A stretch of 54,370 bases of DNA from Clostridia bacterium (GCA_017461065.1 JAFTZC010000014.1:1-54370); one strand, 5' to 3'. Positions 49 to 41,314 are shown, counted from the first letter of the stretch. Translations and numbers: made by a program. Notes: generated by a model from the sequence alone, not told the origin.

Positions 49-1131
49 ATGATAAAGGTTATTGCAATTTTTGGTGGCGACTCCACCGAGCACGACGTCA
101 GCATTATAACGGCGGTTGAAGCGATGAACGCCGTAAACTACGTTGACTACAAGGTATACCCGGCATATATATTGGACGGCGCTTGGTACACGGGCGAAGA
201 TATGTTGGAAGTGGGCACTTTTGTGGATTTTGAGCCCAAAAAGCACAAAAAAATAAGGCTAATCGGGCGTGAACTACAGTATCAAAAGGGAAAGCGGTGG
301 AAGCACCTTGACGACGTAGACGTAGCTCTCGTACTAACTCACGGTGGCGTGGGCGAGCGCGGAGAGTTGCAAGGCTACCTTGAGCTACAAGGGTTGCCGT
401 ACACTACGGGAGATAGTTCGGCGCTTAGCTTGTGTATGGATAAGTATCTAACCAAAATTGCCGTAAAGGACTTGGGATACGACGTGGTGGCTGGCGTAAA
501 AATCAGTGACGATTGCCCCGAAACTGCGCTAAAAGTTGCAAAAAAGCTGGGATATCCCTTGTTTGTCAAGCCAAACGGACAGGGCAGTAGTATAGGGGTA
601 GGCTATGCCCTGGGCGAAAAAGAGCTGCTTGAAAAGGTGGAAGTGGCTCTTAGTTACGATGCCCAAGTGCTAATTGAAAGGGGTATGCAAAATTTCGCGG
701 AGTACAACTGCGCCGTGCTTGCGCTTGGAGACACGATAGTGGTTTCCGAAGTGGAAAAACCGCTAACTGCCCACGATTTTTTGAGTTTTGAAGACAAATA
801 TATGGCGTTTTCCAAGGGTGAGAGCTACGATAAGCGCGAGTTCCCTGCAAAAATAAGCGACGAGCTCCGCCAAAAAATAAAATCCATCGCAGGGGATATT
901 TTCCTAAAATTCAATCTAAAAGGGGTGGTGCGCTTTGATTTCATATATGCCGATAAGCTCTATCTCAACGAAATCAACGCCGTACCCGGCTCGCTCGCAC
1001 ACTATCTATTCCCCGACTACACTCATTCGACCTTCCTATCTCTGCTCATCGACGACGCCTTATACCGTAAGAGCAAAAAAAGCGCCGTTTTCAAGTCAAA
1101 CGTACTTAAAATCGGCGCACCTAAAGGTTAA
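49..1131 (+). CDS. ddl: D-alanine--D-alanine ligase
   Basis: IFGGDSTEHDVS N-terminus, HGGVGERGELQG, YPLFVKP-GSSIG and RFDF...LNEINAVPG ATP-grasp motifs; SD GAGGT. Confidence 0.93.
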   Translation: MIKVIAIFGGDSTEHDVSIITAVEAMNAVNYVDYKVYPAYILDGAWYTGEDMLEVGTFVDFEPKKHKKIRLIGRELQYQKGKRWKHLDDVDVALVLTHGGVGERGELQGYLELQGLPYTTGDSSALSLCMDKYLTKIAVKDLGYDVVAGVKISDDCPETALKVAKKLGYPLFVKPNGQGSSIGVGYALGEKELLEKVEVALSYDAQVLIERGMQNFAEYNCAVLALGDTIVVSEVEKPLTAHDFLSFEDKYMAFSKGESYDKREFPAKISDELRQKIKSIAGDIFLKFNLKGVVRFDFIYADKLYLNEINAVPGSLAHYLFPDYTHSTFLSLLIDDALYRKSKKSAVFKSNVLKIGAPKG

Positions 1132-2006
1132 ATTCTAATTTTGTAATAATCCATCATACCTTTAAATTTGTCTTGAGCGGCAAGACAGGTGTCTTTTAGA
1201 TAGCCTTTTTCATTGCGCCACTCGGCAAGCCCACGGTAGTAGAAAAATTTAAGACTTTCGTCAATAATAAAAGGAATTATGCCGTTTTTCAAGCATTCTT
1301 TTAGCATAATTAGTCTACCGATTCTGCCGTTGCCGTCTTGGAAAGGGTGGATAACTTCAAATTTATAGTGGAACTCAAGTATATCCTCAAGCGTAGGCTT
1401 TTTGATTTGATTATATGCTTTGATTAACGCACACAATTCTTCCTTAACCAAGTTGGGTGGCGTAGTTTCTCTGCCACCGACTTGATTGGGGTGTAGCTTA
1501 TAATCACCCACTCTAAACCAATTTTTACGTGAGTCGGAAGTGCCGTTTTTTAGTATAAAATGCAATAGTTTTATTAAATCTTGACTAATAGGCTTGTTTG
1601 CAGTCTCGATTATAATGTCAATTGCGCGGAAGTGATTGGTAGTTTCCACTATATCATCAACTTTGATAGTGGCCTTCGAAAAGCCGCCAATCGTGTTGGT
1701 TTCAAAAATATATCTCGTTTGGTCGTGGGTTAAGGTACTGCCTTCAATGTGGTTAGAGTTGAAAGTAAGATCAACCTGCAATTGATGATAAATTCCACCA
1801 CTGATGCCATTATTTTTTTCCCATAGTAGGGTGTCAAGCAGTTTTTTTCTCTCTAACCTAACGGGCTTATCGGCAATTTCGGGTATATACCACGTTTTTC
1901 CTTTGAGTATGGCGCCATCAACTCTGTTTTCAGAGCAATAAAAACGCACGCTTGGCTCCGAAACGCCCCATTTTTTAGCAGTTTCACTTACGTTTAGATA
2001 TTTCAT
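1128..2006 (-). CDS. Fic-family protein with N-terminal HTH DNA-binding domain
   Basis: Canonical Fic motif HPFQDGNGRIGR and SNHIEG motif; excisionase-like HTH (SETAKKWGVSEPSVR); AT-rich relative to its neighbours. Confidence 0.92.
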   Translation of the reverse strand: MKYLNVSETAKKWGVSEPSVRFYCSENRVDGAILKGKTWYIPEIADKPVRLERKKLLDTLLWEKNNGISGGIYHQLQVDLTFNSNHIEGSTLTHDQTRYIFETNTIGGFSKATIKVDDIVETTNHFRAIDIIIETANKPISQDLIKLLHFILKNGTSDSRKNWFRVGDYKLHPNQVGGRETTPPNLVKEELCALIKAYNQIKKPTLEDILEFHYKFEVIHPFQDGNGRIGRLIMLKECLKNGIIPFIIDESLKFFYYRGLAEWRNEKGYLKDTCLAAQDKFKGMMDYYKIRI

Positions 2007-2025
2007 ACTTAACTTCCTTAGCCTA

Positions 2026-2096
2026 ATTATAACACTTTATCGGCAAAAATACAAGCCTAAATATGATAAAAGTATTGCAAAAATATTGCCGATAAA
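2026..2096 (-). promoter_or_regulatory. sigmaA-type promoter of the fic gene with inverted TTATCGGCAA operator boxes
   Basis: Minus strand TTGTAT-17-TATAAT (2054-2026); TTTATCGGCAA at 2036-2046 and its reverse complement at 2086-2096. Confidence 0.65.
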
Positions 2097-2170
2097 ACGC
2101 GATTCTTTAGCGAATAGCATTGTCAAATGCGAATTTTCTCAAGGCGCAGTAGGTCTACTACAGCAACCTT
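2092..2170 (+). repeat. Partial copy of the ~125-nt hairpin element (left arm plus apical stem-loop)
   Basis: AAGGCGCAGTAG-GTCTA-CTACAGCAACCTT (2141-2170) parallels AGGGCGCAGTAC-GCCAA-GTACAGCAACCCT at ~11438-11467; shares TTTAGCGA in the left arm. Confidence 0.7.
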
Positions 2171-2184
2171 ATTCTTCACTCCCA

Positions 2185-2313
2185 TAAAACGCGTTAGTTT
2201 GGATGAAAGCCGACGGAAAAGATAAAAGCTCACGAAGCGGAGCGTACTTGGCGTACGTGACCGAGTGAGCTTTTGTGTTTTTTCTATTGATTTCGCCAAA
2301 ATAACGCGTTTTA
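2185..2313 (-). repeat. 129-nt imperfect palindromic hairpin element (copy A)
   Basis: 12-bp terminal IR TAAAACGCGTTA/TAACGCGTTTTA; central GTACTTGGCGTAC (2244-2256); begins at the rqcH stop codon. Confidence 0.85.
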
Positions 2314-3981
2314 AGCTTCTTTTTTTGGTGCAACTATAATAGTCTTATAATTAGTATAGGTTACAAGTCCAATCTTGCCGAGTTTCTTGACGTTCTTCCT
2401 TTCGGTGTAGTCCACTTCGACTTTGGTGTCTTCGCGCCCTTCGGAGTAGTAGGCTACTATCTCGGCTACTCGCTCCAAAACGGTAGGGGGAACGGGTTTG
2501 CCTTTTGATAAAATAACCCCGTGGGAGCCGTGATAGGTCTTGGTGTGAAGCCAGGTATCGTTGCTACTTGCCAAGCCAAAAGTGACTTCGTCGTTTTGCA
2601 AATTGTTCTTGCCGACGTATACTTTAAAGCCAGCGATTTCAAGGGATAGTGGGGGAGTTTTCTTGGGCTTTTTCGGGTTCTTTTTGTGGCTGTCTTTTTG
2701 GACTTGTACGGGCAGTTTTTTTAGGCTGTCAAGCTCCGAGTTAATCTCTTGATACTCGGCTTCCGTCGAGCAGTTTTGCACCGCTACCTTTATGGTTTTA
2801 AGGTATTCCTGTAGCTCCAAAAGTCGCTTTAGTTCTTCCCGTGCGTAGGCTTCCGCGCCCTTTGCTTTGTTGTACCGCTTAAAGTACTTTTCTACGTTCT
2901 TTTGGGGCGAAATAAGGGGATCTAAGGTAATTTCTACCAACCCCGTATTATAAAAATCGTCGCAATTTATAATACTCATACCCTTGTTAATGCGGTAAAT
3001 ATTGCATTTTAAAATTTCGCCGAGTTCTCTATAGCGCTCCTTCTTTTCCGTGTCCAAAAGCGTTTGCTCGTTGTCCTTTATTCTACGCTCGGTTTTGTTG
3101 GTAATGGCCTTTAGTTTTTGGTTGAGCTTTAGGGTGTCGCGTTGCTTTTTTAGAGCTTCGCCCGATGCCTTGTAAAAGGCGTCGATTGCGCCCGACAAAG
3201 TGCTCTCTTTTTTGTACTCGCCCTTGTCCATTCTCGATAGGTATGGGTAGGCGAAAAATCCAACGCATTTGCCCTTATTATCCCATTGGCTGACTGGCTC
3301 GAATAAGTCGCTGTGGTAGCTGTCGTCCACAAGGTTGCTTGCAGCGCTAACGCCCATTTGGTTTACGCGTGCCATAAGCTCAAGCGCGCTTTCCTTGCTG
3401 AGTCCGTTTAGTGTGCCGTATACTTTTTTGACTTCACCACTTGCACAAGCAGCGCTAACGGCTTCAAGGTCGGTTATGCTTGCTTTGCTTTTTGGCGGAT
3501 AGGTGTAGCTCGCTCCAGGGAAAACCACCCTTGACTCAAGGTTCATAACTCTTTTTACGGCGTCGATTATCTTGTAGTCTTCGCGAAGCAAAATAATATT
3601 TGAAGCGCCACCCATAATTTCGATAATCAAACGGAAAGTGGTAGCGTCGTTTAGCTCGTTGCGTGCTACGATTGTGAACTCAAAAAGCCTGTCTTCGTTT
3701 AGGATTTTTACGTCTTCCACCACGCCGAACAGGATATGTTTACGCAGTAACATACAAAAATTGGGTGGAGTGGGGGCGTTTTGGAATCTTACCTTGGTAA
3801 AATGCACTCTCGGAGTATCGGCGCGTGCGCTAAGGTACAAAGCGTGATTTTCTCCGCGCGAACGCACGACGAGCACGACTTCGTCGTCCGAGGGCATACC
3901 GATTTTATCAATTCTTCCGTCGGTAAGGATATCCTTCATCTCGTAAGCGAGAGCTTTTAGCGTTACTAAATCGTTTGGCAT
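2311..3981 (-). CDS. rqcH: Rqc2/RqcH (NFACT, FbpA-like) ribosome quality-control protein
   Basis: FCMLLRKH, LIIEIMG..SNIIL, VGKNNLQNDEVT, WLHTK..HGSH and VDYTERKNVKK motifs. Confidence 0.93.
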   Translation of the reverse strand: MPNDLVTLKALAYEMKDILTDGRIDKIGMPSDDEVVLVVRSRGENHALYLSARADTPRVHFTKVRFQNAPTPPNFCMLLRKHILFGVVEDVKILNEDRLFEFTIVARNELNDATTFRLIIEIMGGASNIILLREDYKIIDAVKRVMNLESRVVFPGASYTYPPKSKASITDLEAVSAACASGEVKKVYGTLNGLSKESALELMARVNQMGVSAASNLVDDSYHSDLFEPVSQWDNKGKCVGFFAYPYLSRMDKGEYKKESTLSGAIDAFYKASGEALKKQRDTLKLNQKLKAITNKTERRIKDNEQTLLDTEKKERYRELGEILKCNIYRINKGMSIINCDDFYNTGLVEITLDPLISPQKNVEKYFKRYNKAKGAEAYAREELKRLLELQEYLKTIKVAVQNCSTEAEYQEINSELDSLKKLPVQVQKDSHKKNPKKPKKTPPLSLEIAGFKVYVGKNNLQNDEVTFGLASSNDTWLHTKTYHGSHGVILSKGKPVPPTVLERVAEIVAYYSEGREDTKVEVDYTERKNVKKLGKIGLVTYTNYKTIIVAPKKEA

Positions 3982-3987
3982 ATCTCA

Positions 3988-4016
3988 ATTATAACCAAAC
4001 GGGCTTAACTACGCAA
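3988..4016 (-). promoter_or_regulatory. sigmaA promoter of rqcH (probably leaderless)
   Basis: Minus strand TTGCGT-17-TATAAT, then 6 nt to ATG; no SD. Confidence 0.65.
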
Positions 4017-4043
4017 CCGATTTCTAAGAATTACCAAAAACAG

Positions 4044-4072
4044 TTGCAATTACCCTTTATATTTGTTATTAT
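4044..4072 (+). promoter_or_regulatory. sigmaA promoter of tig
   Basis: TTGCAA-17-TATTAT, divergent from rqcH. Confidence 0.6.
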
Positions 4073-4128
4073 ATACGGGCGCACGCAAAAGCGCATTAAC
4101 TCAAGAACAATTCGGAGGTATATAAATT

Positions 4129-5457
4129 ATGGAGTATTCAGTACAAAAACTCGAAAAATCAAAGGTAGAAATCTCTATTTCTATCGAAAAAGAAGAATGG
4201 ATGAGCTACATCCAAGAAGCTTACAACAAGAATAAGCATCGCTATGCTATCGATGGTTTCCGCAAGGGTAAAGTTCCATTTAACTTTATCGTTAAGAGAT
4301 ACGGCATCGAATTCTTCTTTGAAGACGGCGCAGACATCGCTATGAGCAAGACCTATTCGGAAGTTGTCGAAAAGGAAAAGCTTGACGTTGTATCACGTCC
4401 CGAAGTTGACATCAACAACATTGACGAAGACGGTCTCAAGTTCACCGTTGGCGTAGCAGTATATCCTGAGTTCGAAGTTGCTCAATATACCGGTTTGACC
4501 CTAAAGAAGGTTGTAAACAAGGTTAAGAAGGCAGAAATCGATGCAGAAATCAACCGTGAGCTCGAAGGCAACGCACGTTTCATCAACGTAACCGACCGTG
4601 AAGTACAAAGCGGCGATATGCTAACTCTCGATTATAGTGGCGCAGTTGACGGCGTTAAGTTCGAAGGCGGCACTGCAGAAAAGCAAGCACTCACCATTGG
4701 TTCAAACCAATTCATTCCCGGCTTTGAAGACCAACTTATCGGCAAGAAGATTGGCGAAGAATGTGCTATCACCGTAACTTTCCCTGCTGAATATCACGCA
4801 GCTGACCTTGCAGGCAAGGAAGCAGTATTCACCTGCCTTATCCACGAAATCAAGGTTAAGGAACTCCCTGCACTTGACGACGAATTCGCAAAGGATCTTG
4901 GATTTGATAAGCTAACCGCATACAAAGCAGACGTTAAGGCAAGACTTCAAAAGAAGGCTGACGAGCAAGCTATCACCGAAGAAAACGAAGCACTTCTTTC
5001 AAAGATCGTTGATGCAACCGAAGTTGACATTCCCGATTGTATGATCGAAGAAGAACTTGATAGATTTGTCGGCAATATGAAGGCAAATATGGCACAATAC
5101 GGCCTAAAGTTTGAAGATTATCTCAAATATGCACAAACCACCGAAGAAGCAATCCGTGCAGAGCGCAAAGACGCATGTGCAAAGGAACTCAAGATCGGTA
5201 TTGTAATCGAAGCTATCGTTAAGAAGGAAAATCTCGTACCCACCAAGGAAGACTTCGAGCAAGCTATGGAAAAAGCAGCTGAAGAGCAAGGTATGACCAA
5301 AGAAGAGTTTGCTAAGAGCGCAGACGAACGCACCTATAACTATATGATGACTCGTCTAATGGACGAAAAGCTCATCGCATACCTACGCGAGAACAACACC
5401 TTCGAAGAAAAGAAGAGCACCAAGAAGGCAACTGAAAAGGCAAAAGACGCTGAATAA
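4129..5457 (+). CDS. tig: Trigger factor
   Basis: GFRKGKVP ribosome-binding motif, FKBP domain (FIPGFEDQLIG), SD GGAGG. Confidence 0.97.
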   Translation: MEYSVQKLEKSKVEISISIEKEEWMSYIQEAYNKNKHRYAIDGFRKGKVPFNFIVKRYGIEFFFEDGADIAMSKTYSEVVEKEKLDVVSRPEVDINNIDEDGLKFTVGVAVYPEFEVAQYTGLTLKKVVNKVKKAEIDAEINRELEGNARFINVTDREVQSGDMLTLDYSGAVDGVKFEGGTAEKQALTIGSNQFIPGFEDQLIGKKIGEECAITVTFPAEYHAADLAGKEAVFTCLIHEIKVKELPALDDEFAKDLGFDKLTAYKADVKARLQKKADEQAITEENEALLSKIVDATEVDIPDCMIEEELDRFVGNMKANMAQYGLKFEDYLKYAQTTEEAIRAERKDACAKELKIGIVIEAIVKKENLVPTKEDFEQAMEKAAEEQGMTKEEFAKSADERTYNYMMTRLMDEKLIAYLRENNTFEEKKSTKKATEKAKDAE

Positions 5458-5483
5458 TCTCAAACGCCAAAAATAGCATAAGT

Positions 5484-5512
5484 GCGCCGTTTTGGTCAGA
5501 CTAAAGCGGCGC
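5484..5512 (+). other. GC-rich intergenic hairpin without U-tract between tig and clpP
   Basis: GCGCCGTTTTGGT-CAG-ACTAAAGCGGCGC. Confidence 0.5.
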
Positions 5513-5564
5513 TCTATTGGGTACAATAGTTAGGGGACAAAGCAACGTTATAAGGAGAATTTTT

Positions 5565-6173
5565 ATGGTAAACGAAATCAAATCGGTAATGATGCCGATT
5601 CCAACTGTAATCGAGCAATCCAACAGGGGCTCTACTGCATACGATCTATATTCAAGACTACTTGAAGACAGAATTATTTTCCTAACGGGACAAATTGACG
5701 ATGCGACTGCAAACTTAGTAGTCGGACAGTTGTTATATCTTGAAACTAAGGACCCAACCAAGGATATATGTTTATACATCAACTCACCCGGTGGCTCGGT
5801 TACTGCAGGAATGGCGATATTCGACACTATGAACTACATCAAGTGCGACGTATCGACGATATGCGTAGGTATGGCGGCATCAATGGGCGCATTCCTACTT
5901 GCAGCAGGCACCAAGGGCAAGAGGATTGCTCTTCCCAACAGTGAAGTTATGATTCACCAACCACTCGGCGGAGCACAAGGACAAGCAAGCGACATCAAAA
6001 TCGTTGCCGACCATATCTTGAAAATCAAGGCAAAGCTCAACAAGTTCTTAGCCGAAGCAACGGGCAAGCCCATCGAAGTAATCGAGCGCGACACCGACCG
6101 TGACAACTATATGTCAGCTGAAGAAGCCAAGGCATACGGACTTGTCGACGAAGTTTTCTACACAAGGAAATAG
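5565..6173 (+). CDS. clpP: ATP-dependent Clp protease proteolytic subunit
   Basis: [28 protein letters not shown]; start moved to ATG 5565 after AAGGAG. Confidence 0.97.
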
Positions 6174-6181
6174 GGGTATAG

Positions 6182-7411
6182 ATGGAATTTATAGACGAAA
6201 AACTCAATTGTTCCTTCTGTGGCAAGAGTGAAGACGAAGTCGACGTGCTATACGCAGGTCAAGACGGTGCTTTGATATGCAGAGAGTGTGCCGAAAAGCT
6301 TACCGAGCTATTCCGCAAGGAAGAGCTTGCTGCTAAGCCCGTAGGGGATATCAACCTAATATCTCCAAAGGAGATAAAGGCTAAGCTCGACGAGTATATC
6401 GTAGGCCAAGACGAAGCCAAAAAGATACTATCCGTTGCCGTATACAACCACTACAAGCGTATTGCGGCAAAGGGCTCTGATAAGTATAAAGACGTCGTTT
6501 TGGAAAAGAGCAACATACTTATGCTCGGACCGACGGGAAGCGGCAAGACGCTGCTTGCAAAGACGCTTGCAAGCATCTTGAACGTGCCCTTTGCTATTGC
6601 CGATGCAACCGCACTTACCGAAGCAGGTTACGTAGGCGAAGACGTCGAAAACATACTCCTAAAGCTCATACAAGCATCAAAGGGCGACGTCAAGCGTGCC
6701 GAAAAGGGCATCATTTACATTGACGAAATCGACAAAATCTGTCGCAAGTCGGAAAACGTCTCTATCACTCGTGACGTATCGGGCGAAGGCGTACAACAAG
6801 CGCTACTCAAAATTTTGGAGTCTACGGTAGCAAACGTACCACCGCAAGGGGGCAGAAAACATCCCCAGCAGGAGTTTATTCCAATTGATACCACCGATAT
6901 ATTGTTTATATGTGGCGGTGCGTTCGTAGGGCTCGAAAAGATAGTTGACAAGCGCAAGGACACTTCGTCTATCGGCTTTAACGCAAACCTAAGGAACAGC
7001 GAAGAAAGCTACTCCGAGATGATGAGCGACCTACGTCCCGACGACCTAATAAAGTTTGGCTTAATCCCCGAATTCGTAGGCAGAATACCCGTCGTAGCGG
7101 TACTTGACCCACTTGACGAAAAGGCACTCGTCAACATTTTGAAAGAGCCTAAGAACGCGCTCACCAAGCAGTACCAAAAGCTACTTGATATGGACGGCGT
7201 AGAGCTCGAGTTTAGTGACGAAGCGCTAAGCGCCATAGCCGACAAGGCGTTGAAGCTCAAGACGGGCGCAAGAGGACTACGTACGATAGTCGAAAACGCC
7301 ATACTCGGCGTTATGTACGAAGTACCGGGCGACAAGACGATATCAAAAATCGTCATCACACCCGAGTGCATAAGCGGCACCGCCAAGCCCACGATTATAC
7401 GCGTGGCATAG
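6182..7411 (+). CDS. clpX: Clp protease ATP-binding subunit
   Basis: CSFCGK zinc finger, [29 protein letters not shown]. Confidence 0.98.
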
Positions 7412-7433
7412 GTCAAAACACCAATAATTTACA

Positions 7434-7463
7434 TTGATTTTATCACCCTTGCGGTGATAAAAT
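7434..7463 (+). promoter_or_regulatory. Putative lon promoter overlapped by an 11-bp perfect inverted repeat
   Basis: TTGATT-18-TAAAAT; ATTTTATCACC-N5-GGTGATAAAAT at 7437-7463. Confidence 0.5.
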
Positions 7464-7482
7464 TGTCTATAAGGATAAACTT

Positions 7483-9762
7483 ATGAAGAACGCAAGAATG
7501 ATAATGATAGCGACCGAGGAAGTGGTTTTCCCCTACGAGTGCGGAAAGCTACGCGTTACCGAAGACGCTGATATTTTAGCAATACAAAGGGCGGTCAGCG
7601 AGGGCGAAAAGATTGTTCTCGTACCCGTCAGAGTAGGCGAGCGCCCAAAGGACGGCGACGTAGGTATCGTCACCGAAGTGGAGCAATTTATTTACGTCCC
7701 CGAAGACAACGAGGGCGCTATACTAATGTATAAGACGGGCACGCGCCGCAACTACATCCACGAGATGGAGTGCGACGGCATTGCAACCACCGTATCCCTT
7801 GCATCTTGTCCTTTTTACGACTCTGGCGACGAGTTCACTCTCCGCACTTATTTTGAGCGCGCAAGCGAGCTGTTTATGAATCTTAGCGGCATTCTAAAGG
7901 GTGTCAACGGCAGCGCGATTAGGCTTGAGTACGATAGCGTAAACACCGATATTGATGCAATCGTAATTTGGCTAAAGACGGCAGATAAGTATCTATTCTT
8001 CACTTGCTTGGATACCGAAACACGCCTAATGGAGTTTTGCAAGGCACTTGATATGGAAGTATACGCAATGGGCCTTGATATCCAAGTTGCAGAAAAAGTT
8101 CGCACGTCTATGGACCAAAGCCAACGCGAGTATTACGTACGCGAGCAAATACGCGCTCTCTCCGAAGAAATCGGGGATGAAGACGAAGAAGGTCAATATC
8201 TTCAAAAGATAGATAACCTTTTGACCACCGATGCTAACAAGGAAAAATTCCGTCGCGAAGTTCGTAGGTTGAAGCGTACTGCGCCTGCAAGTCCCGATAT
8301 GGCGCTAATCAAAAACTATCTCGACACCATTTTGGAGCTTCCTTGGGGCGTATATACCGACGACAACGAAGACCTCAAGGTGGCAAAGAAAGTTCTTGAC
8401 GAAGACCACTACGGCATCAACAAGGTTAAGGAAAGGCTTATCGAAGCGCTTGCAGTAAGAAAGCTATCCAAAGAGGGTAGGAGTCCCATCATTTGTTTGG
8501 TAGGCCCGCCCGGAATTGGCAAAACTTCTATTGCAAAGTCCATTGCAAGGGCGATGAACAAAAAATACGTTCGTTTGAGCTTTGGCGGCGTACGTGACGA
8601 AGCTGAAATTCGCGGACACCGCAAGACCTACGTAGGCGCAATGCCGGGTAGAATTATCACGTCCATACAATCGGCTGGCAGTATGAACCCCGTATTCCTA
8701 ATGGACGAAATCGACAAGATGGCGTCCGACTACAAGGGTGACCCTGCAAGTGCGTTACTTGAAGTATTGGACCCTGCACAAAACGTCAACTTCCGCGACC
8801 ACTTCTTGGAAGTACCTTTTGATTTATCCAAGGTATTGTTTATCGTTACGGCAAACACGCTCGATACCATTTCAAGACCGCTCCTTGACAGAATGGAAGT
8901 CATCGAAATGACGGGCTATACCGCTCCCGAAAAGTTGGAAATTGCTATGCGCTATATCATTCCACGCGCACTTGAGCAAAACGGCGTAGACAAAAAGTGG
9001 ATGAGCATTGATAGGGACACCGTAAGTCATATCATCGAGTATTACACCCGCGAAGCAGGTGTTAGAATGCTCGAAAAGCAAATCAACGCAGTTGTACGCA
9101 AGGTTGCACGCAAGTACGTCGAAAACCCACGCACGCGCAAAGTTAAAATAAATAAGGATAATATTAAGGATTATCTTGGCGAGCCCGTCGTGCTACCCTC
9201 AAAAGGCCCACGCAAGGACGAAGTAGGCGTAGTAACAGGTCTTGCTTGGAACGCGGTTGGCGGAGACATCACCGAAGTAGAAGTTGCCTACTCAAAGGGC
9301 AAGGGCAATTTGGTGCTTACGGGCAGTCTTGGCGACGTTATAAAGGAAAGTGCTAAGATAGCAATAAGCTATCTTAAAGTACACGCAAGCGAGTATGGTA
9401 TCGCTGACGATTTCTTTGAGAAGCACGATATCCATATCCATATGCCCGAAGGTGCCGTTCCAAAGGACGGACCAAGCGCAGGCATCACCTTTACTACGGC
9501 AATTTGCTCGGCAATTACGGGCAAAAAGGTACGTGGCAATGTTGCAATGACGGGTGAAATTAGTCTTGTCGGCAAGGTACTGCCAATCGGTGGACTAAAG
9601 GAAAAGACGCTTGCAGCCCTTCGTGAAGGGATTGTCAAGGTATTCCTACCCGAAGACAACCGCAAGGACTACAAGGAGCTACCCGAGCTTGTAAAGGAAA
9701 AGATAGAATTCAGATACGTAGAGCGCGTAGAAGACGTGCTAAAGGAAGCGATAATATGGTAA
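7483..9762 (+). CDS. lon: Lon protease (divergent N-domain)
   Basis: GPPGIGKTS, EIRGHRKTYVGAMPG and PKDGPSAG catalytic motif. Confidence 0.96.
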   Translation: MKNARMIMIATEEVVFPYECGKLRVTEDADILAIQRAVSEGEKIVLVPVRVGERPKDGDVGIVTEVEQFIYVPEDNEGAILMYKTGTRRNYIHEMECDGIATTVSLASCPFYDSGDEFTLRTYFERASELFMNLSGILKGVNGSAIRLEYDSVNTDIDAIVIWLKTADKYLFFTCLDTETRLMEFCKALDMEVYAMGLDIQVAEKVRTSMDQSQREYYVREQIRALSEEIGDEDEEGQYLQKIDNLLTTDANKEKFRREVRRLKRTAPASPDMALIKNYLDTILELPWGVYTDDNEDLKVAKKVLDEDHYGINKVKERLIEALAVRKLSKEGRSPIICLVGPPGIGKTSIAKSIARAMNKKYVRLSFGGVRDEAEIRGHRKTYVGAMPGRIITSIQSAGSMNPVFLMDEIDKMASDYKGDPASALLEVLDPAQNVNFRDHFLEVPFDLSKVLFIVTANTLDTISRPLLDRMEVIEMTGYTAPEKLEIAMRYIIPRALEQNGVDKKWMSIDRDTVSHIIEYYTREAGVRMLEKQINAVVRKVARKYVENPRTRKVKINKDNIKDYLGEPVVLPSKGPRKDEVGVVTGLAWNAVGGDITEVEVAYSKGKGNLVLTGSLGDVIKESAKIAISYLKVHASEYGIADDFFEKHDIHIHMPEGAVPKDGPSAGITFTTAICSAITGKKVRGNVAMTGEISLVGKVLPIGGLKEKTLAALREGIVKVFLPEDNRKDYKELPELVKEKIEFRYVERVEDVLKEAIIW

Positions 9763-10364
9763 TCAAAAACGCAGAATTTATCACGAGCGCAGGCACGGTC
9801 GAGCAAATCATCAAGGGTAGTACCCCCGAAATCGCGGTAGTAGGCCGCTCCAACGTAGGCAAGTCGAGTTTTATCAACTTTATGTGCAACCACGGTCGTC
9901 TTGCCAAGACGTCCAAGGAGCCGGGCAGAACTCGTCTAATCAACTACTTTGACGTCAACAAGGGCGAATTCATCTTCGTTGACCTACCTGGCTATGGTTT
10001 TGCCAAGGTAAACGATAACGAAAAGGCCAAGTGGGGCAAGATAATTGAAGCATACCTTCAAGAAAGCACGGGGCTCAAAAACGTTTTCGTGCTACTTGAC
10101 ATTAGGCGCGAGCCAAATGCCGACGACGTCCAAATGCTCAACTACCTATACCACTACAACATACCTTTCACCATCATTGCCACCAAGGGCGACAAGCTTA
10201 GCCGTAGTGCAGGCTTAAAGCGCAAAAGAGAGATAGCAAACGCCCTTAAAGTAGGTGTTGGCAACGTACTTTTGACGTCCAGCCTAAACAAGAGCGGCGC
10301 ACAAGAAGTTCTTGACCGAATTGAAAACATTTTGGAAGTAGAAGAACTTCCCATTGAAGAATAG
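9756..10364 (+). CDS. engB: Ribosome biogenesis GTPase YihA/YsxC
   Basis: GRSNVGKSS, DLPGYG, TKGDK; follows lon. Confidence 0.96.
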   Translation: MVIKNAEFITSAGTVEQIIKGSTPEIAVVGRSNVGKSSFINFMCNHGRLAKTSKEPGRTRLINYFDVNKGEFIFVDLPGYGFAKVNDNEKAKWGKIIEAYLQESTGLKNVFVLLDIRREPNADDVQMLNYLYHYNIPFTIIATKGDKLSRSAGLKRKREIANALKVGVGNVLLTSSLNKSGAQEVLDRIENILEVEELPIEE

Positions 10365-10669
10365 TGCGAAAGCGAGCTTTCGCAATGAAATACAAAAGCT
10401 AATGCTTTTTGCAATAAATACTCTCGCCTTGCGAGAGCAAGAAATACCTTCACTCCGTTCGGCGCGAAATACAAGTGCAAGCACTTGCGTTAAGGAAAGA
10501 GCATATACTAAGTACTACGATATGCTTTAACTCTCTAATACCGTAACGCAAAAAACTTGTTTTTTGTATTTATTGCCTTGGAGCGTTAGCGCAAAGGTAT
10601 TTATCGCCCGTAGGGTATTTATCGCTGAGCGCAAGCGAAGTATTTATCGCGAATGCTTTGCATTCCGCA
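10365..10669. repeat. Symmetric branched repeat/hairpin element (~305 nt)
   Basis: Four GC-N2-3-(G/T)AAATAC repeats on the left and four GTATTTAT(C/T)GC on the right, each separated by short hairpins, around a central stem. Confidence 0.85.
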
Positions 10670-10691
10670 TTTACGACAGTAAGGAGTAACT

Positions 10692-11393
10692 ATGAAAGTT
10701 TTCGCAATAAGCGACCCCCATCTTTCCTTTGACGAAACCAAGCCAATGAATATTTTTGGCTCGGTTTGGGATAACCATTGGGATGAAATTACTAAGGATT
10801 GGGATAATAGGGTATCGGATGACGATATCGTGCTTATTGCCGGTGATATTTCGTGGGCGATGAAGCTCGAAGACGCCAAGCGCGACCTTGAGCTGATTGG
10901 CAAGCAAAAGGGCATAAAGGTACTTATCCGTGGCAACCACGACTATTGGTGGAGTAGTTACAAAAAAATCCAAGAGATACTCCCCGAAAACCTATATTGC
11001 CTGCAAAACAACGCCGTTAAGTTCGGTAACGTCATTATATGTGGCACTCGCGGTTGGTCGGTGCCCGAACTCGGAGTGGAAACCGACGAGCACGATTTGC
11101 TCCTATACGAGCGTGAAAAACTCCGTTTGGAGCTTTCCCTAAAGGAAGCCAAAAAGCTATGGCAGGAAGGGGATATCATCATTGCAATGATGCACTTCCC
11201 ACCATTCAACTCAAGGTACTTGAGTTCACACTTTACCGATTTATTCAAAGAATACGGCGTACATAGCGTAGTTTACGGACATCTCCACGGCAACGCATCT
11301 CGCACCGTTCTCGTCTACGAAAAGCAAGGTATTTCTTATTATCTTACTTCTTGCGATAAGCTTAATAATAAACTCCAAATAATAGAAATATAG
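10692..11393 (+). CDS. Calcineurin-like metallophosphoesterase
   Basis: DPH, GDIS, GNHD, HFPP and GHLH motifs. Confidence 0.92.
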   Translation: MKVFAISDPHLSFDETKPMNIFGSVWDNHWDEITKDWDNRVSDDDIVLIAGDISWAMKLEDAKRDLELIGKQKGIKVLIRGNHDYWWSSYKKIQEILPENLYCLQNNAVKFGNVIICGTRGWSVPELGVETDEHDLLLYEREKLRLELSLKEAKKLWQEGDIIIAMMHFPPFNSRYLSSHFTDLFKEYGVHSVVYGHLHGNASRTVLVYEKQGISYYLTSCDKLNNKLQIIEI

Positions 11394-11515
11394 ACCACGA
11401 ATTTTAGCGATATACTTTGAAAAACGCAACCCACGGCAGGGCGCAGTACGCCAAGTACAGCAACCCTTTGTGGGTTTTCTTTTTCTTCGTCTATCATCTA
11501 AACTTCGTGGTCTAT
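11390..11515 (+). repeat. 126-nt imperfect palindromic hairpin element (copy B)
   Basis: 12-bp terminal IR ATAGACCACGAA/TTCGTGGTCTAT; central GTACGCCAAGTAC (11446-11458); overlaps the upstream TAG stop. Confidence 0.85.
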
Positions 11516-11532
11516 CGTGCTTTAGGTCACTT

Positions 11533-12036
11533 TTAATTTTCTAATGAATCATCTAATTCAGCATCTTCAAGCGCGCCAAAATTATAGATGTCTATGAATT
11601 TTTTATTTTTTGCATATTTGTAGGTAGCGTAGGCGCCACCTATGCTATAATCCACGTAGGCGAATAGAATTATAGACTTATCAATCATATACTTGTTACG
11701 TGCAAGTATGGCGTATTTTGGTGGGATATGTTCGATAGGTGGGGTGATGATTCCGTCGTAGTAGCCGTCTTGTACTAACAAATCCAATTCTTTTAGATAG
11801 CTTTCGTTAAAGTAGGGTGTAACGACGTAAACTTTAATGGTAGGGAAATATTCTTTTAGTTCTTTTAGTATTACTGCGCAAGTGGAATCAAAAGCTCCTT
11901 GGGCGCCGCAGTAAAAGGTTAATACGCCGCTTTCAATAGTTTCTTTGAGTGCTTTTCTAATTTTTTTTCGTGTAGAATTAGAAAGATAAACATCTCTGTG
12001 TCCAATAAACGTTGCAATTAACCCATTGTTTTTCAT
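11533..12036 (-). CDS. SLOG-superfamily (YpsA/DUF1273-like) protein
   Basis: TFIGHR, GAQGAFD, ARNKYMIDKS and GGAYATYKYA motifs; AT-rich. Confidence 0.8.
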   Translation of the reverse strand: MKNNGLIATFIGHRDVYLSNSTRKKIRKALKETIESGVLTFYCGAQGAFDSTCAVILKELKEYFPTIKVYVVTPYFNESYLKELDLLVQDGYYDGIITPPIEHIPPKYAILARNKYMIDKSIILFAYVDYSIGGAYATYKYAKNKKFIDIYNFGALEDAELDDSLEN

Positions 12037-12078
12037 ATTTCTTCCTTTGTGTAATAAAAATAATTGAATTGCAATATA

Positions 12079-12110
12079 ATAGATACAAAATAGATATATT
12101 ATGTATCTAT
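12079..12110. promoter_or_regulatory. Putative operator between the divergent SLOG and Arc genes
   Basis: ATAGATACA...TGTATCTAT inverted repeat with an extra ATAGATA between the arms. Confidence 0.55.
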
Positions 12111-12174
12111 TTTAACATTTTACCACAAAATGAGTATAAAGTAAATACATATTATGTTTAAAAAGAGGTTAGAA

Positions 12175-12351
12175 ATGGCTGTTAAAAGTTTATCTATTAG
12201 AATTGAAGAAGAAATGTTAGATAAGTTGCACGTTGTTGCTGATTACGAAGAAAGGAGCGCTAACAGCCAAATAATAATCTTGATACGGAATTGTATTGAT
12301 GAATTTGAACAAAAGCACGGTAAGATTATCGTGAGTGAAAAAGATGAATAG
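12175..12351 (+). CDS. Arc-family ribbon-helix-helix DNA-binding protein
   Basis: SLSIRIEEEMLDKLHVVADYEERSANSQI pattern; start at ATG 12175 after GAGGT. Confidence 0.85.
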   Translation: MAVKSLSIRIEEEMLDKLHVVADYEERSANSQIIILIRNCIDEFEQKHGKIIVSEKDE

Positions 12352-12352
12352 T

Positions 12353-12377
12353 AAAGAGCCGATAGGCTCTTTTTTTT
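12353..12377 (+). terminator. Intrinsic terminator
   Basis: AAAGAGCC-GATA-GGCTCTTT plus T-run. Confidence 0.8.
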
Positions 12378-12407
12378 ATCCCAAAAACCATAACTACCTT
12401 TTTGTTT

Positions 12408-12475
12408 GCTGATAAGCAAAGCACTTATCAGCGAATGCAATTTCGCATTCCTCACTCACCATTCCTCATTTTTAA
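12408..12475 (-). repeat. Two hairpins plus a degenerate heptamer array
   Basis: GCTGATAAG/CTTATCAGC and GAATGC/GCATTC hairpins, then TTTCGCA TTCCTCA CTCACCA TTCCTCA TTTTTAA. Confidence 0.65.
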
Positions 12476-12484
12476 CTAATCCAC

Positions 12485-12582
12485 AACTTTTAGCCTTAGC
12501 TAAAAACTTCACTTGTGCTCTGCTCAAACTTCACTACGCAGTAACTTCACTGCGTAGCAACTTCACCTGCGATATCATCGCA
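12485..12582. repeat. AACTTCAC x4 array with mini-hairpin spacers
   Basis: AACTTCAC at 12505, 12527, 12543 and 12559; flanking TTTTAGC/GCTAAAA and TGCGAT/ATCGCA hairpins. Confidence 0.8.
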
Positions 12583-12679
12583 TTACATTTAGAACGCTTG
12601 TTCACATTCGTTCTATTTTTTTGCTCAAAATTTGGTTTGTTTCCCTAATTTTCCCTAAATCACCCTTGATTTTTAATTA

Positions 12680-12714
12680 AAGTGGTTGAAAGTGGTTAAA
12701 GTCTATGGTAAAAT
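12680..12714 (+). promoter_or_regulatory. mraZ/dcw promoter with putative MraZ-binding repeats
   Basis: TTGAAA-17-TAAAAT with TG extension; AAGTGGTT repeated at a 10-bp period, like the GTGG repeats bound by firmicute MraZ. Confidence 0.7.
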
Positions 12715-12745
12715 TTAAGTAGCAAAAGAGGAGAGGACTATACCC

Positions 12746-13183: not shown

Positions 13184-13184
13184 T

Positions 13185-30597: not shown

Positions 30598-30623
30598 AAA
30601 AAATCCACCATAAGGTGGACTTT
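30598..30623 (-). terminator. Terminator of RNase P RNA
   Basis: Minus strand GTCCACC-TTAT-GGTGGAT plus T-run. Confidence 0.75.
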
Positions 30624-30624
30624 G

Positions 30625-30935
30625 AGTTAGTCTATAAGCCGAGTTCTGTATTTGACGACCATCTGTCTTGCCCCATAGTCACCTATGGGATCTAGCGATT
30701 GAGGGGACGGACGGGCAGCCCATAGTCCCTTTTCTCTTGCATCGAGTGGGGTTTACACAGCCAATTTCGTCGCCGAACTGCTGGTGAGCTCTTACCTCAC
30801 CTTTTCACCCTTGCGATAAATCGCGGTATTTTTCTGTTGCACTTTCCCTAAAGTTGCCTCCGGCAGGATTTCTCTGCCACTCTGCCCTGTGATGCTCGGA
30901 CTTTCCTCACACTTGGTGCAGCCGTCTGACTAACT
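30625..30935 (-). ncRNA. rnpB: RNase P RNA (compact, type A-like)
   Basis: Minus strand GAGGAAAGTCCGAG, GAAAGTGCAACAGAA, GGGTGAAA...GGTAAGAGC and ACAGAACTCGGCTTA; P1 AGTTAGTC/GACTAACT. Confidence 0.97.
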
Positions 30936-30941
30936 ACGTTT

Positions 30942-32331: not shown

Positions 32332-32333
32332 TT

Positions 32334-32870: not shown

Positions 32871-32876
32871 TATCCA

Positions 32877-35728: not shown

Positions 35729-35743
35729 AAGGAGCAAAAAGCA

Positions 35744-36717: not shown

Positions 36718-36770
36718 AAATAGTCAAAACCCCCTTGAAAAACCATTGATACTGTGGTATTCTATTGTAT

Positions 36771-38177: not shown

Positions 38178-38190
38178 AACCCAAACGTAT

Positions 38191-38219
38191 AAAGCCCTTC
38201 GATAGGGCTTTTTATTTTT
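38191..38219 (+). terminator. Intrinsic terminator
   Basis: AAAGCCCT/AGGGCTTT plus T-run. Confidence 0.8.
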
Positions 38220-38286
38220 AAATTAACAGGCGTTCGCCATAATTTAATATTATTTTTATATTTAAATATAAAATGTATAAAATCGT

Positions 38287-38400
38287 TTGCAAAAGGCGGT
38301 TTTATGTGTTATCATACATAAGCCATAATACGCACCTATGCGGAGAAAATCGTTGTTGCCCCATAAAGGTGGCGGTTTTTTAAGAAGCGTAGGGAGGAAA
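38287..38400 (+). promoter_or_regulatory. rpsB promoter and putative S2 autoregulatory leader
   Basis: TTGCAA-17-TATCAT; leader stem CCTATGC/GCGTAGG preceded by CGCAC, with internal GGTGGCG. Confidence 0.6.
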
Positions 38401-38425
38401 AAACAAATCAGGAGGTATATTTAAA

Positions 38426-39160: not shown

Positions 39161-39198
39161 TAAATCGATAAAACAATAGGTAAAAGGAGATTATAAAT

Positions 39199-39864: not shown

Positions 39865-39873
39865 TTATTGATT

Positions 39874-39898
39874 AAGGGATACGTAGTATCCCTTTTTT
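39874..39898 (+). terminator. Intrinsic terminator after tsf
   Basis: AAGGGATAC-GTA-GTATCCCTT plus T-run. Confidence 0.8.
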
Positions 39899-39911
39899 AT
39901 AAGGAGTACTT

Positions 39912-40616
39912 ATGCAACCAAAATATAATAGGATTCTACTAAAAATATCCGGCGAAGCACTCGCAGGTCCAAAAGGCTTTGGTCTTGACCAAGATATCAT
40001 CGAAGGTATTATCAAGCAAATCAAGGAAGTCAAGGAACTTGGCGTCGAAATCGGCATCGTAATCGGTGCAGGTAACTTCTGGAGAGGCAGACAGGGCGGC
40101 AATATGGATAGGTCTACTGCCGACTATATGGGAATGCTTGCAACGGTAATGAACTGCTTGGCTCTACAAGACGCTCTTGAAAAGGCAGGTCTTGCAACCA
40201 GAGTTCAAACCACGCTCCAAATTACCCAAATCGCCGAGCCGTTCATTATCAGAAAGGCAATTAGGCACCTTGAAAAAGGTAGAATCGTAATCTTCGGTTG
40301 CGGCACGGGTGCTCCTTACTTTACGACCGATACCGCAGCAGCTCTCAAGGCCGCTGAAATCAAGGCTGACGTACTACTTCTTGCAAAGAACGTAGACGGT
40401 ATATATGATAGTGACCCTAAGACCAACCCCAATGCAGTCAAGTTCGAGCGTATATCGGGTATCGAGTTTATCAAGCGCGAACTCACTGCAATGGATACCA
40501 CGGCAGTCAGCCTATGTATGACCAACAAAACTCCCGTCATCGCATTCGGCTTAAACGAACCCGAAAGTATCAAGCGCGCTGTAATGGGCGAAAAAATCGG
40601 AACGATAATCGATTAA
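39912..40616 (+). CDS. pyrH: UMP kinase
   Basis: [26 protein letters not shown]. Confidence 0.98.
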
Positions 40617-40620
40617 TGAT

Positions 40621-40647
40621 AAAAAGCACTCGTAAGAGTGCTTTTTT
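40621..40647 (+). terminator. Bidirectional intrinsic terminator
   Basis: AAAAAGCACTC-GTAA-GAGTGCTTTTT. Confidence 0.85.
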
Positions 40648-40648
40648 A

Positions 40649-40695
40649 AATGCGAAATGCGAAGTGCGAAATACGAAATGGCTTTGCTTGGCAAA
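40649..40695 (+). repeat. Heptamer tandem array plus small hairpin
   Basis: AATGCGA AATGCGA AGTGCGA AATACGA, then TTTGC-TTG-GCAAA. Confidence 0.75.
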
Positions 40696-40772
40696 CAAGG
40701 ATTAAATATAATCTTGTATGGTTGATATTTGTATGTTATAATATCTTTATATATAATAAGGAGAAAAATATA

Positions 40773-41267
40773 ATGTTTGACGATATTGGTAATAAAATAA
40801 AGAAACTTGCTAAAGTAATGTATATTATTGAGGTGCTTTGTTGCGTTATAATCGGAATTGTAATCTTTATTTTATCTGCAACAGAGAACAATGGATTAAC
40901 GATACTCTATGGACTTTTAATATTAATATTAGGACCAATTTTTGCTTGGTTAGCTACTTTTGTGTTGTATGCGTTTGGTGATCTTGTGGATAATGTTGCT
41001 GCAATTAGAAATAAGGTTGCACCAGCTGGTTTTGGTGAGCAACTAAATAAAGAAAACATTGTTGTATCTGTTCAGGATGAAAATAGTGATGTTGATATCA
41101 CGCCTTTAGAAGATAGTGATAGTGGAGTTGGCGTTTGTGAGAGATGTGGTATTATCGATGTGCCGGTTTGGAAATGTGTGATTAAAGACGAAAAAGGTGT
41201 ACATTATAAAAAATTGTGTATTGATTGCATAACTGATGCAGAAAGCAATGCAGAGATAGTGGATTAA
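40773..41267 (+). CDS. AT-rich hypothetical membrane protein (2 TM, C-terminal CxxC...CxxC)
   Basis: AAGGAG SD, own promoter TTGTAT-17-TATAAT (40714-40742), CERC and CIDC. Confidence 0.8.
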   Translation: MFDDIGNKIKKLAKVMYIIEVLCCVIIGIVIFILSATENNGLTILYGLLILILGPIFAWLATFVLYAFGDLVDNVAAIRNKVAPAGFGEQLNKENIVVSVQDENSDVDITPLEDSDSGVGVCERCGIIDVPVWKCVIKDEKGVHYKKLCIDCITDAESNAEIVD

Positions 41268-41287
41268 TCAGTAGAATAAATAATATA

Positions 41288-41314
41288 AACATCCTTAAGG
41301 GGTGTTCTTATTAT
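41288..41314 (+). terminator. Possible terminator of the inserted gene
   Basis: AACATCC-TTAAG-GGGTGTT hairpin. Confidence 0.5.

Follow-up and report, generated by a model that had tools for sequence, protein, structure and literature searches.

Three AT-rich gene islets in a 54,370-nucleotide contig of a Clostridia bacterium (GCA_017461065.1 JAFTZC010000014.1:1-54370; "the window" below means this whole stretch) lie beside long hairpins and arrays of seven-nucleotide repeats, which raises the question of whether such structured repeats take part in the capture of genes. A first-pass annotation of the window proposed that they do, as a dispersed integron in which an enzyme acting in trans would insert or shuffle one- or two-gene cassettes at the repeats. 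We find that the repeats are dispersed, multi-copy foldback elements whose positions differ between species, that cargo is gained and lost at the boundaries where the islets lie, and that operon boundaries are preferred by repeats and inserts alike. An integron-like mechanism is not supported. The reading that we consider probable is that two ordinary processes meet at the same places: permissive operon-boundary hot spots of the minimal-mobile-element type, and repeats resembling miniature inverted-repeat transposable elements (MITEs).

The window is contig C59 of G000, a 1.51-Mb assembly (81 contigs, 78.6% completeness, 43.8% GC), and the other G labels used here denote the 21 other genomes of the same genus. 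Completeness is 60% for G032, the closest species, 95% for G002, and 96% for G004.

Species-specific islets between housekeeping genes

All three islets are species-specific insertions at junctions where sister species have either nothing or other cargo, in keeping with the first-pass expectation of differing cargo among relatives. The islet genes are absent from these junctions in every sister species examined, and are thus not conserved, vertically inherited occupants of them. They are also the only open reading frame (ORF) groups in the window below 38.5% GC (the genome ORF mean is 0.439, sd 0.040), which bears out their description as foreign-looking. The islets, their own signals, and the conserved genes around them, whose calls were confirmed, are listed by position in the window, with the strand where one is assigned:

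49-1131 (+), ddl
1128-2006 (-), islet gene HTH-Fic (HTH, helix-turn-helix), 292 aa, ORF GC 0.38; Pfam Fic, E 3.8e-15, with a weak HTH_17 match
2036-2096, inverted repeat TTTATCGGCAA / TTGCCGATAAA, 11 nt, 100% complementary, spanning the Fic promoter region
2311-3981 (-), rqcH/NFACT
9756-10364 (+), engB
10692-11393 (+), metallophosphoesterase gene
11533-12036 (-), islet gene SLOG/YpsA-like, 167 aa, GC 0.36; PF06908 at 27.8 bits, barely above the cut-off of 27.7
12075-12160, divergent promoter/operator region with nested palindromes, between SLOG and Arc; highly conserved in the G032 copy
12175-12351 (+), islet gene for an Arc-type repressor, 58 aa; Pfam PF03869
12353-12372 (+), terminator-like hairpin followed by a T-run, 3' of Arc
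12746-13183 (+), mraZ
39912-40616 (+), pyrH
40621-40646 (+), pyrH terminator hairpin, kept in relatives; left edge of the orphan insertion
40773-41267 (+), islet gene termed the orphan, 164 aa, GC 0.32; membrane-like N-terminus and a C-terminal CxxC...CxxC part
41276-41318 (+), AT-rich inverted repeat 3' of the orphan
41397-41972 (+), frr

The ddl and rqcH genes are convergent, and Fic sits between them with no gap on the ddl side, where the two stops overlap at 1128-1131. In G002, G011, G010, G015, and G005 the same pair is convergent, 0-120 bp apart, without Fic and without a repeat. In G004 and G017 the junction is occupied by a gene whose 630-641-aa product combines a TIR-like N-terminus (YFVSYSHKDY...FWYD) with BspA-type leucine-rich repeats (L039 1398-3323(-) and L040 1662-3554(-)); the gene overlaps the stops of both neighbors and leaves neither an intergenic gap nor repeat DNA. 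In G032 an element of the B repeat family (see below) directly follows ddl, and the 355 bp left before the contig ends contain no Fic. The window's protein retains an intact Fic motif, HPFQDGNGRIGR, and is assigned by PADLOC to the candidate defence family PDC-S04 (E 7e-107); with a TIR-like gene in its place in two sister species, the junction has the look of a hot spot for defence genes.

Between pyrH and frr, five relatives (G032, G007, G002, G005, and G011) have 46-68 bp comprising the terminator and the frr promoter, and in G004 the matches abut. Mapped against these six genomes, the orphan insert spans 40648 to about 41296-41310, where homology to relatives resumes. G015 carries at this junction (L041 900-2865) genes for a 595-aa flavodiiron/rubredoxin-type protein and a 51-aa rubredoxin, indicating that the cargo here is not always AT-rich or defence-like; gaps of 0.3-1.9 kb occur in several more distant species. 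The orphan protein has no Pfam, PADLOC, or NCBIfam family above cut-off, and among 200 other genomes of the order 8 contain relatives, all of them weak N-terminal matches.

The junction between the metallophosphoesterase gene and mraZ lacks SLOG and Arc in G032, G004, G017, G015, and G007; in G032 it holds 424 bp of other repeat modules, and in G011 a 109-aa membrane ORF. A SLOG-Arc homolog does occur in G032, at a different locus, with about 65-85% nucleotide identity and a nearly identical operator region. The two copies are no closer than core genes, giving no sign of recent movement. On one side of the G032 copy lie a MITE-A element and a GTTATAT-linker array, and beyond its other end lies a core/arm repeat. 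In L118, another Clostridia metagenome-assembled genome, a third SLOG gene (53% identity) is paired with an HTH gene instead of Arc and is followed by a palindrome-armed array. We considered the module shared by the G032 and L118 flanks as a fixed part of the cassette and rejected it, as its orientation relative to SLOG is opposite in the two.

The view of the islets as self-contained units also held: the cassettes are dispersed singly, and each has promoter-like and operator-like signals of its own. The promoter-like hexamers of Fic lie on the minus strand at 2092-2063, and the inverted repeat at 2036-2096 is likely an operator.

Directly upstream of mraZ, 12640-12702 contains direct repeats, TTTCCCTAAT (1.9 copies) and TTAAAGTGG (2.8 copies), which may resemble the repeated boxes by which MraZ regulates its own promoter.

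Structured repeats in the window

By self-BLAST against the 1.5-Mb assembly, five intervals of the window have at least two other copies (2091-2325, 10387-10652, 11387-11505, 12438-12572, and 40633-40689). Four of the five lie in gaps touching an islet gene, and the fifth lies in the cargo-free gap between engB and the metallophosphoesterase gene (10365-10669), which the first-pass annotation had correctly singled out as the only other structured gap. The elements are:

2094-2170, truncated MITE-A (profile positions 1-79); 79-nt matches at 95-99% identity on contigs C4, C24, C79, and C58
2185-2313, full-length MITE-A (nhmmer positions 1-126) with an 18-nt terminal inverted repeat, 2185-2202/2296-2313
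10387-10649, B element, a 262-nt foldback whose arms are units of RAAATAC plus a small palindrome around a core; a repeat-only junction without cargo
11392-11516, MITE-A variant with ends ATAGACCACGAA.../...TTCGTGGTCTAT, from nhmmer and its inverted repeat
12406-12590, mosaic of repeat modules: hairpin GCGAATGC..GCATTCC at 12431-12451, CATTCCT-type heptamers, a TAATCCACAAC core remnant, and an arm of AACTTCAC plus palindrome
40648-40701, GCGAAAT-type heptamer array (4.7 units) with a small hairpin module, GGCTTTGCTTGGCAAACAAGG; dispersed modules, exactly at the insert's left junction

The hairpins and heptamer arrays are real structures. Besides the termini of MITE-A, inverted repeats occur at 2217-2233/2265-2281 and 11394-11407/11498-11511, tandem arrays at 40648-40680 (period 7, 4.7 copies) and 12527-12566 (period 16), and whole elements fold better than all 200 shuffles (2184-2314 as DNA, z -7.4; 10385-10652 as RNA, z -4.8). 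The interval 12438-12572 has up to 23 other copies, and 40633-40689 up to 10. A vocabulary had been described as shared between element types; GCGAATGC-N-GCATTCC, at 10649 and 12431, is indeed beyond chance (0 expected in 100 shuffles), whereas AGTGCGAAA, at 10363 and 40663, is by itself at chance level (0.69 expected, with two or more in 16 of 100 shuffles). Across the whole window, RNase P RNA is the sole Rfam match at gathering scores (a bacterial class A gene at 30619-30937(-), 243.8 bits); at permissive E-values, 10300-12800 and 1950-2400 gave chance-level matches (E 0.4-4.6). A search of the window for tRNA and tmRNA genes found none.

The full-length MITE-A ends 1 nt from the rqcH ORF boundary, and its terminal TTA supplies the rqcH stop codon. 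The MITE-A variant occurs at the orthologous position in G032 (query 918-1745 contiguous) and in G002 (933-1745), and so probably predates the SLOG/Arc islet.

That the islets are bordered by repeats is true only in part: although most of the multi-copy intervals touch them, the repeats at Fic and at the orphan are confined to one side, and SLOG/Arc has different families on its two sides. The 129 nucleotides 3' of the orphan (41268-41396) have no match elsewhere in the genome and contain no dispersed repeat. At none of the three islets do two copies of one MITE family bracket the genes with a duplicated target. In formal terms, a single repeat-bearing side would suit an integron-like system with one recombination site for each cassette, but no site is common to the three: Fic has MITE-A, SLOG/Arc has the MITE-A variant and the AACTTCAC-armed mosaic, and the orphan has the GCGAAAT array. 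The polarity of the repeats relative to the genes also differs, the repeats being 5' of the gene at Fic and at the orphan and 3' of it at SLOG and at Arc, and the alternative cargo of G004 and G017 at ddl-rqcH leaves no space for a repeat on either side.

Two public runs of one study hold the stretch and three further runs hold a small share of it, the source being animal gut metagenomes according to their record. In two runs, independent contigs span ddl-Fic (1-2121) as well as the MITE-A variant with SLOG, Arc, and the arrays (11441-12513) at an even depth of about 25x, indicating that the linkage of islets and repeats is not a binning or assembly artefact; these runs may be the source sample. 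When four runs were mapped on 1-13200, contigs broke at the repeats and gave no joint that skips an islet, an observation that, being made on contigs, cannot show absence.

Repeat families across the genome

The repeats are a genome-wide feature. Bases with at least three other copies make up 2.06% of G000, and 92 of its 550 gaps of at least 30 bp bear repeats (at least 25 bp of repeat, self-matches longer than 600 bp having been dropped beforehand), forming mosaics of modules in the gaps between operons. The genes flanking repeat-bearing gaps are mostly of normal GC. No multi-copy sequence longer than 600 bp was found in G000, nor any self-match of more than 600 bp above 80% identity.

MITE-A is a foldback of about 126 nt with ends (T)AAAACGCG...CGCGTTTT(A), a GC-rich central hairpin, and T-rich flanks. 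An iterated nhmmer profile gave 141 hits, which resolve into 71 loci, 47 of them full length. The end of the element lies within 3 nt of a stop codon in 36 of these 47, and that close to a start codon in none; as for rqcH, the terminal TAA/TTA is often itself the stop codon of the neighboring gene. Construction accounts for part of this count, because an element that opens with AAAACG yields TAA in one frame when inserted at TA. Most copies are flanked by TA...TA or AT...AT; since these dinucleotides are palindromic, a target-site duplication would look the same as a longer inverted repeat. Folding of the central part is strong (median about -34 kcal/mol), and by a crude test on sequence alone (at least 5 T in the 9 nt after the fold) copies are terminator-like on at least one strand in 17 of 47 and on both strands in 1 of 47. 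Within the genus, 9 of the 21 genomes besides G000 have MITE-A matches (G002, G004, G005, G007, G010, G011, G015, G017, and G032); in 299 genomes outside the genus, with two candidates scored per genome, none was found.

The B element has at least nine copies at 91-96% identity. Its arms alternate an (A/G)AAATAC-type linker with small perfect palindromes of differing sequence, and its core ends are TTAAGG...TAATACCACAA. The same arm plan recurs with other linkers in further elements (AACTTCAC, AATTCATG, CACTTATC, and GTTATAT); for these linker-plus-palindrome arms we found neither a matching Rfam family nor a counterpart in a literature search. Between G000 (for example 10470-10485) and G032 (L054-L059), one arm palindrome of B differs by two compensating changes that keep the stem, AAGTGCaaGCACTT -> AAGCACaaGTGCTT, and one G000 copy has the G032-like form; the linker drifts between copies of the two genomes from ATAAATAC to ATAATTAC or ATAACTAC. 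In the gap between engB and the metallophosphoesterase gene, the B element is missing from G032 (37 bp) and, by match spacing, from the other eight genomes of the subclade.

Plain heptamer arrays (GCGAAAT, CATTCCT) form a further module. A scan for chains of at least three identical 7-mers spaced 7-34 nt apart returned 400 raw chains at 144 distinct loci, compared with 2 chains in the shuffled genome, and a perfect stem of at least 4 bp lies in 113 of 266 array spacers of at least 8 nt, against 27 of 266 after shuffling.

Two side observations concern the distribution of these families. At 38178-38425 the window has no repeats and G004 has 323 bp of them at the same junction (G004:C5:90630-91088), indicating that repeats have been gained or lost in both directions within the syntenic block. 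Elsewhere in G000, further species-specific cassettes lie beside repeats, on one side only as in the window: a HipA-like kinase gene at C54:11154-12248(-) and a low-GC pair of DNA methyltransferase genes (GC 0.30-0.34) at C58:60009-63127.

Repeats and inserts meet at operon boundaries

The repeats are not randomly placed with respect to variable genes. Between G000 and G004, 487 reciprocal best hits define 389 collinear junctions, at which we scored inserts after excluding inserted ORFs that are shorter than 80 aa or covered by repeats. In G000, repeats are present at 6 of 24 junctions with inserts and at 13 of 365 without (odds ratio 9.0, p=4.6e-4; 10/34 and 9/355 before the filter), and the mirror test in G004 gives 3/24 and 8/365 (odds ratio 6.4, p=0.025). 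Such non-random proximity, like the self-contained cassettes and the varying cargo at the same junctions, is what an integron-like system would also produce. Composition tells a similar story within G000, where ORFs below 38.5% GC make up 33 of the 170 next to repeat-bearing gaps versus 79 of 1011 others (odds ratio 2.8, p=1.3e-5); the mean GC of repeat-adjacent ORFs does not differ from that elsewhere (0.435 versus 0.440, Mann-Whitney p=0.35). A repeat is found at one or more boundaries in 27 of 80 low-GC islets and at both in 5, and the orphan islet, whose ORF call swallowed the array, would raise the 27 to 28.

The overlap is partial in both directions: 18 of the 24 insert junctions are free of repeats, and 13 of the 19 repeat junctions are free of inserts. 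Spacer length accounts for much of it. Among junctions where G004 has neither feature, its median spacer is 11 bp at the 339 cold ones; it rises to 128 bp at the 8 where G000 carries repeats (p=0.003) and to 160 bp at the 12 where G000 carries an insert (p=4.5e-6). Confining the comparison to junctions whose G004 spacer reaches 50 bp or more (153 in all) gives counts of 6/24 and 12/129 (odds ratio 3.25, p=0.04), and this fall from 9.0 indicates that most of the co-location stems from the confinement of both features to operon boundaries. A modest link between repeats and inserts remains unexplained.

None of nine mobility-enzyme families tracks the repeats

Nine recombinase, transposase, and reverse-transcriptase families were sought in six frames in five repeat-bearing genomes (G000, G032, G002, G004, and G005), and none is common to all five. 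DDE_3, DDE_Tnp_1, IS110, and TnpB match in none; rve matches in G005, RVT_1 in G004 and G005, Resolvase in G000, G004, and G005, and Y1_Tnp in G005. Phage_integrase (PF00589) gives ordinary matches of 302-362 aa in G002, G004, and G005 and none in G000 and G032. Absence from the latter two is weak evidence because both are incomplete, and G002 and G004 are more telling. None of the nine families matches on C59, in line with the first-pass remark that no transposase or integrase lies nearby, the matches in G000 being confined to C37 and C70. On C37, a 57-aa frame at 22795-22887(-) covers the last 32 positions of the Y1 (IS200-type) profile and is the sole HUH trace in the assembly. Four 365-aa ORFs beside repeats, considered as a multi-copy transposase, proved to be an unrelated HipA-like kinase, ABC ATPase, kinase-like protein, and DNA methyltransferase.

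Profiling the repeats against recombinase, HUH, and reverse-transcriptase families, as the first pass had suggested, thus yields no enzyme that accompanies them. An integron-like model might be rescued by an enzyme co-distributed with the repeats, perhaps in the unassembled 21% of G000.

Two ordinary processes as the probable reading, and alternatives

In the reading that we favor, the repeats are non-coding, non-autonomous, hairpin-forming intergenic repeats of the MITE, repetitive extragenic palindrome (REP), or bacterial interspersed mosaic element (BIME) kind, multiplied in one subclade of an uncultured gut Clostridia genus and probably mobilized in trans, now or formerly, like other orphan MITEs. 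They pile up as mosaics in inter-operon gaps, typically directly on stop codons. The islets, in turn, are lineage-specific accessory cassettes (the Fic candidate defence gene, SLOG with Arc, and the membrane/zinc-ribbon orphan), each equipped with a promoter and terminator and placed where one conserved housekeeping operon gives way to the next, perhaps through homologous recombination in the conserved flanks after DNA uptake. Among the genes relevant to uptake, ComEC is present in five of five genomes and DprA in three of five, being missing from the two incomplete ones. Repeats and cassettes would then coincide mainly because both persist only where the spacer is unconstrained, and the residual link could reflect repeats colonizing unconstrained DNA brought in by a cassette, or repeats aiding recombination.

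Several observations weigh against this reading or temper it. At ddl-rqcH and pyrH-frr, the empty sites of most relatives have no repeats, which suggests that the repeats came with or after the cargo, an order that a model of pre-existing permissive gaps alone does not predict. Repeats tend to be present at the same junction in both species (9 of the 11 G004 repeat junctions, odds ratio 166), and of these nine junctions four have a cassette in one species only and one has unrelated ORFs in both. Array-type repeats adjoin SLOG cassettes at three loci in three genomes, and the association that survives spacer control belongs here as well. Recombination in the flanks is a route that we infer for the cargo, and ComEC and DprA genes are common too in bacteria not known to take up DNA. 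The data set also has its bounds: all comparisons are between species and none between strains (median protein identity to G004 78.5%), ORFs were called crudely, by taking the longest frame, the G004 data amount to 1.069 of 1.888 Mb, and ddl-rqcH lies outside the 389-junction set. This last dropout from the reciprocal best hits may stem from the recurrence of window positions 1-411, the 5' part of ddl, at a contig end (G000:C50:6784-7194, 98% identity), which probably represents overlapping contig ends or a strain variant.

Foremost among the alternatives, though unlikely, is that the repeats assist capture, either as portable homology or as a MITE pair mobilized as a composite by a transposase in trans, so that cassette turnover favors repeat clusters. 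It would account for the residual odds ratio of 3.25, for the four of nine shared repeat junctions with cargo in one species only, for the heptamer array exactly at the left junction of the orphan insert, and for the SLOG cassettes lying 0-30 nt from repeat modules in G000, G032, and L118, each at a different locus. Against it, no islet lies between two copies of one family, the repeats at Fic and the orphan are one-sided, and the module shared by G032 and L118 is inverted relative to SLOG. There is also no duplicated cargo and no long self-match in G000, the SLOG-Arc copies of G000 and G032 are as diverged as core genes, three quarters of insert junctions have no repeat (18/24), and no transposase family is common to the repeat-bearing genomes.

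Next in likelihood, and also unlikely, is a role for repeat clusters as landing pads that endure at operon boundaries, being kept at the same junction in species about 20% diverged (9 of 11 junctions), and that speed the turnover of defence, toxin-antitoxin, and orphan cassettes; this would be a dispersed, transposase-free cassette exchange. Its means could be recombination from repeat to repeat or an unrecognized enzyme, possibly encoded in the unassembled part of the genome, and the palindrome-and-linker arms would be the structure recognized.

We think it improbable that the repeats, and MITE-A especially, have been selected for ending or stabilizing transcripts, with new genes tolerated best behind such insulators. 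The proximity of MITE-A to stops rather than starts, its strong central fold, and the copy at 2185-2313 between rqcH and the Fic promoter suit this proposal; the AAAACG-start at TA inflates the first of these figures, terminator-like copies are by the crude test above a minority (17/47, and 1/47 on both strands), and heptamer arrays and palindrome-armed elements are left unaccounted for.

Highly improbable, finally, is the integron-like model, in which a dedicated recombinase, HUH enzyme, or reverse transcriptase acting in trans would place cassettes of one or two genes at structured repeats dispersed over the genome, since repeat families, sides, and polarity differ between islets, most inserts are repeat-free, no enzyme tracks the repeats, and the repeats are genome-wide rather than islet-specific, gathering like the inserts at loosely constrained inter-operon gaps.

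The window is thus an example of two ordinary processes that, by meeting at operon boundaries, can give the look of a cassette system, and the share of co-location that they explain is quantified here. Should the residual link be causal, it would offer small-genome gut Clostridia a route of defence-gene exchange that needs no transposase. The repeat families merit specialist attention in their own right: one is a foldback of which three quarters of the full copies abut stop codons, and others combine a fixed 7-8-nt linker with small perfect palindromes.

Comparison with known systems

Integrons combine an IntI integrase, an attI/Pc platform, and an array of promoterless cassettes behind a common promoter, each with an attC-like site. 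The islets resemble them in being small, self-contained gene units beside imperfect inverted repeats, with cargo that varies between relatives. They differ in that there is no IntI (PF00589 has no match in G000 or G032, both incomplete), no attI/Pc, and no cassette array, and in that the genes have their own promoters, no single attC-like site, and an inconsistent repeat position relative to the gene.

Arrays of heptanucleotide repeats are known as the STRR of heterocystous cyanobacteria. The TAACTGA repeats of Beggiatoaceae are reportedly tandem 7-nt intergenic units at many loci (PMC4679880). The arrays described here share that plan, in another phylum and with other motifs (GCGAAAT, CATTCCT), and are mixed with palindrome-bearing arms and MITEs.

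The BIMEs of E. coli and BOX elements of pneumococcus are mosaic intergenic repeats. Here too short modules are combined in variable order and number between genes; the modules themselves are unrelated in sequence, and in the arms a conserved 7-8-nt linker alternates with perfect small palindromes that differ from one another. REP and REPIN sequences, which travel with RAYT transposases, are reported to be small palindromic intergenic repeats, often in inverted pairs and at high copy number (PMC3116915, PMC3733652). These traits recur in the present repeats, which differ in being longer foldbacks, in showing no GTAG/CGTC head, and in that no RAYT tracks them (Y1_Tnp in one of five genomes, plus the 57-aa fragment in G000).

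Among MITEs, the RUP of pneumococcus is a similar element. The CREE/NEMIS repeats of Neisseria are non-coding elements of about 100-160 bp with terminal inverted repeats around a core, TA ends, tens to hundreds of intergenic copies, positions that vary among relatives, and no transposase of their own (PMC2649163). MITE-A matches that outline as a short, dispersed foldback with TA ends, no transposase of its own, and positions varying between relatives. It has no sequence relation to CREE or RUP, sits directly on stops in most full copies (36/47), and is accompanied by no IS630-type DDE_3 gene anywhere in the five genomes. Of the features that define MITEs, the present repeats show a short non-coding foldback with terminal inverted repeats, in many dispersed copies (71 loci of MITE-A, at least nine copies of B), and relatives have an empty site for B. 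An autonomous relative or transposase was not found among the DDE_3, DDE_Tnp_1, IS110, and TnpB (0/5), rve, and Y1_Tnp searches described above, a result compatible with the class, since orphan MITEs are common.

For the islets themselves, the closest models are the minimal mobile elements of Neisseria, reportedly described by Saunders and Snyder in 2002 and by Snyder et al. in 2007, and the defence hot spots flanked by core genes. In minimal mobile elements, cassettes are reportedly exchanged by flank recombination (PMC2649163). Repeat co-location is not in their definition, and flank recombination after uptake is for the present loci a step that we infer. The likeness is otherwise close: at all three junctions differing whole-gene cassettes, or none, lie between the same conserved pair, no integrase or transposase is nearby, and the cargo is often of the defence or toxin-antitoxin type (the PDC-S04 Fic, and the HipA-like gene on C54). 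What the window presents are therefore new repeat families of a known intergenic kind, at hot spots of a known kind.

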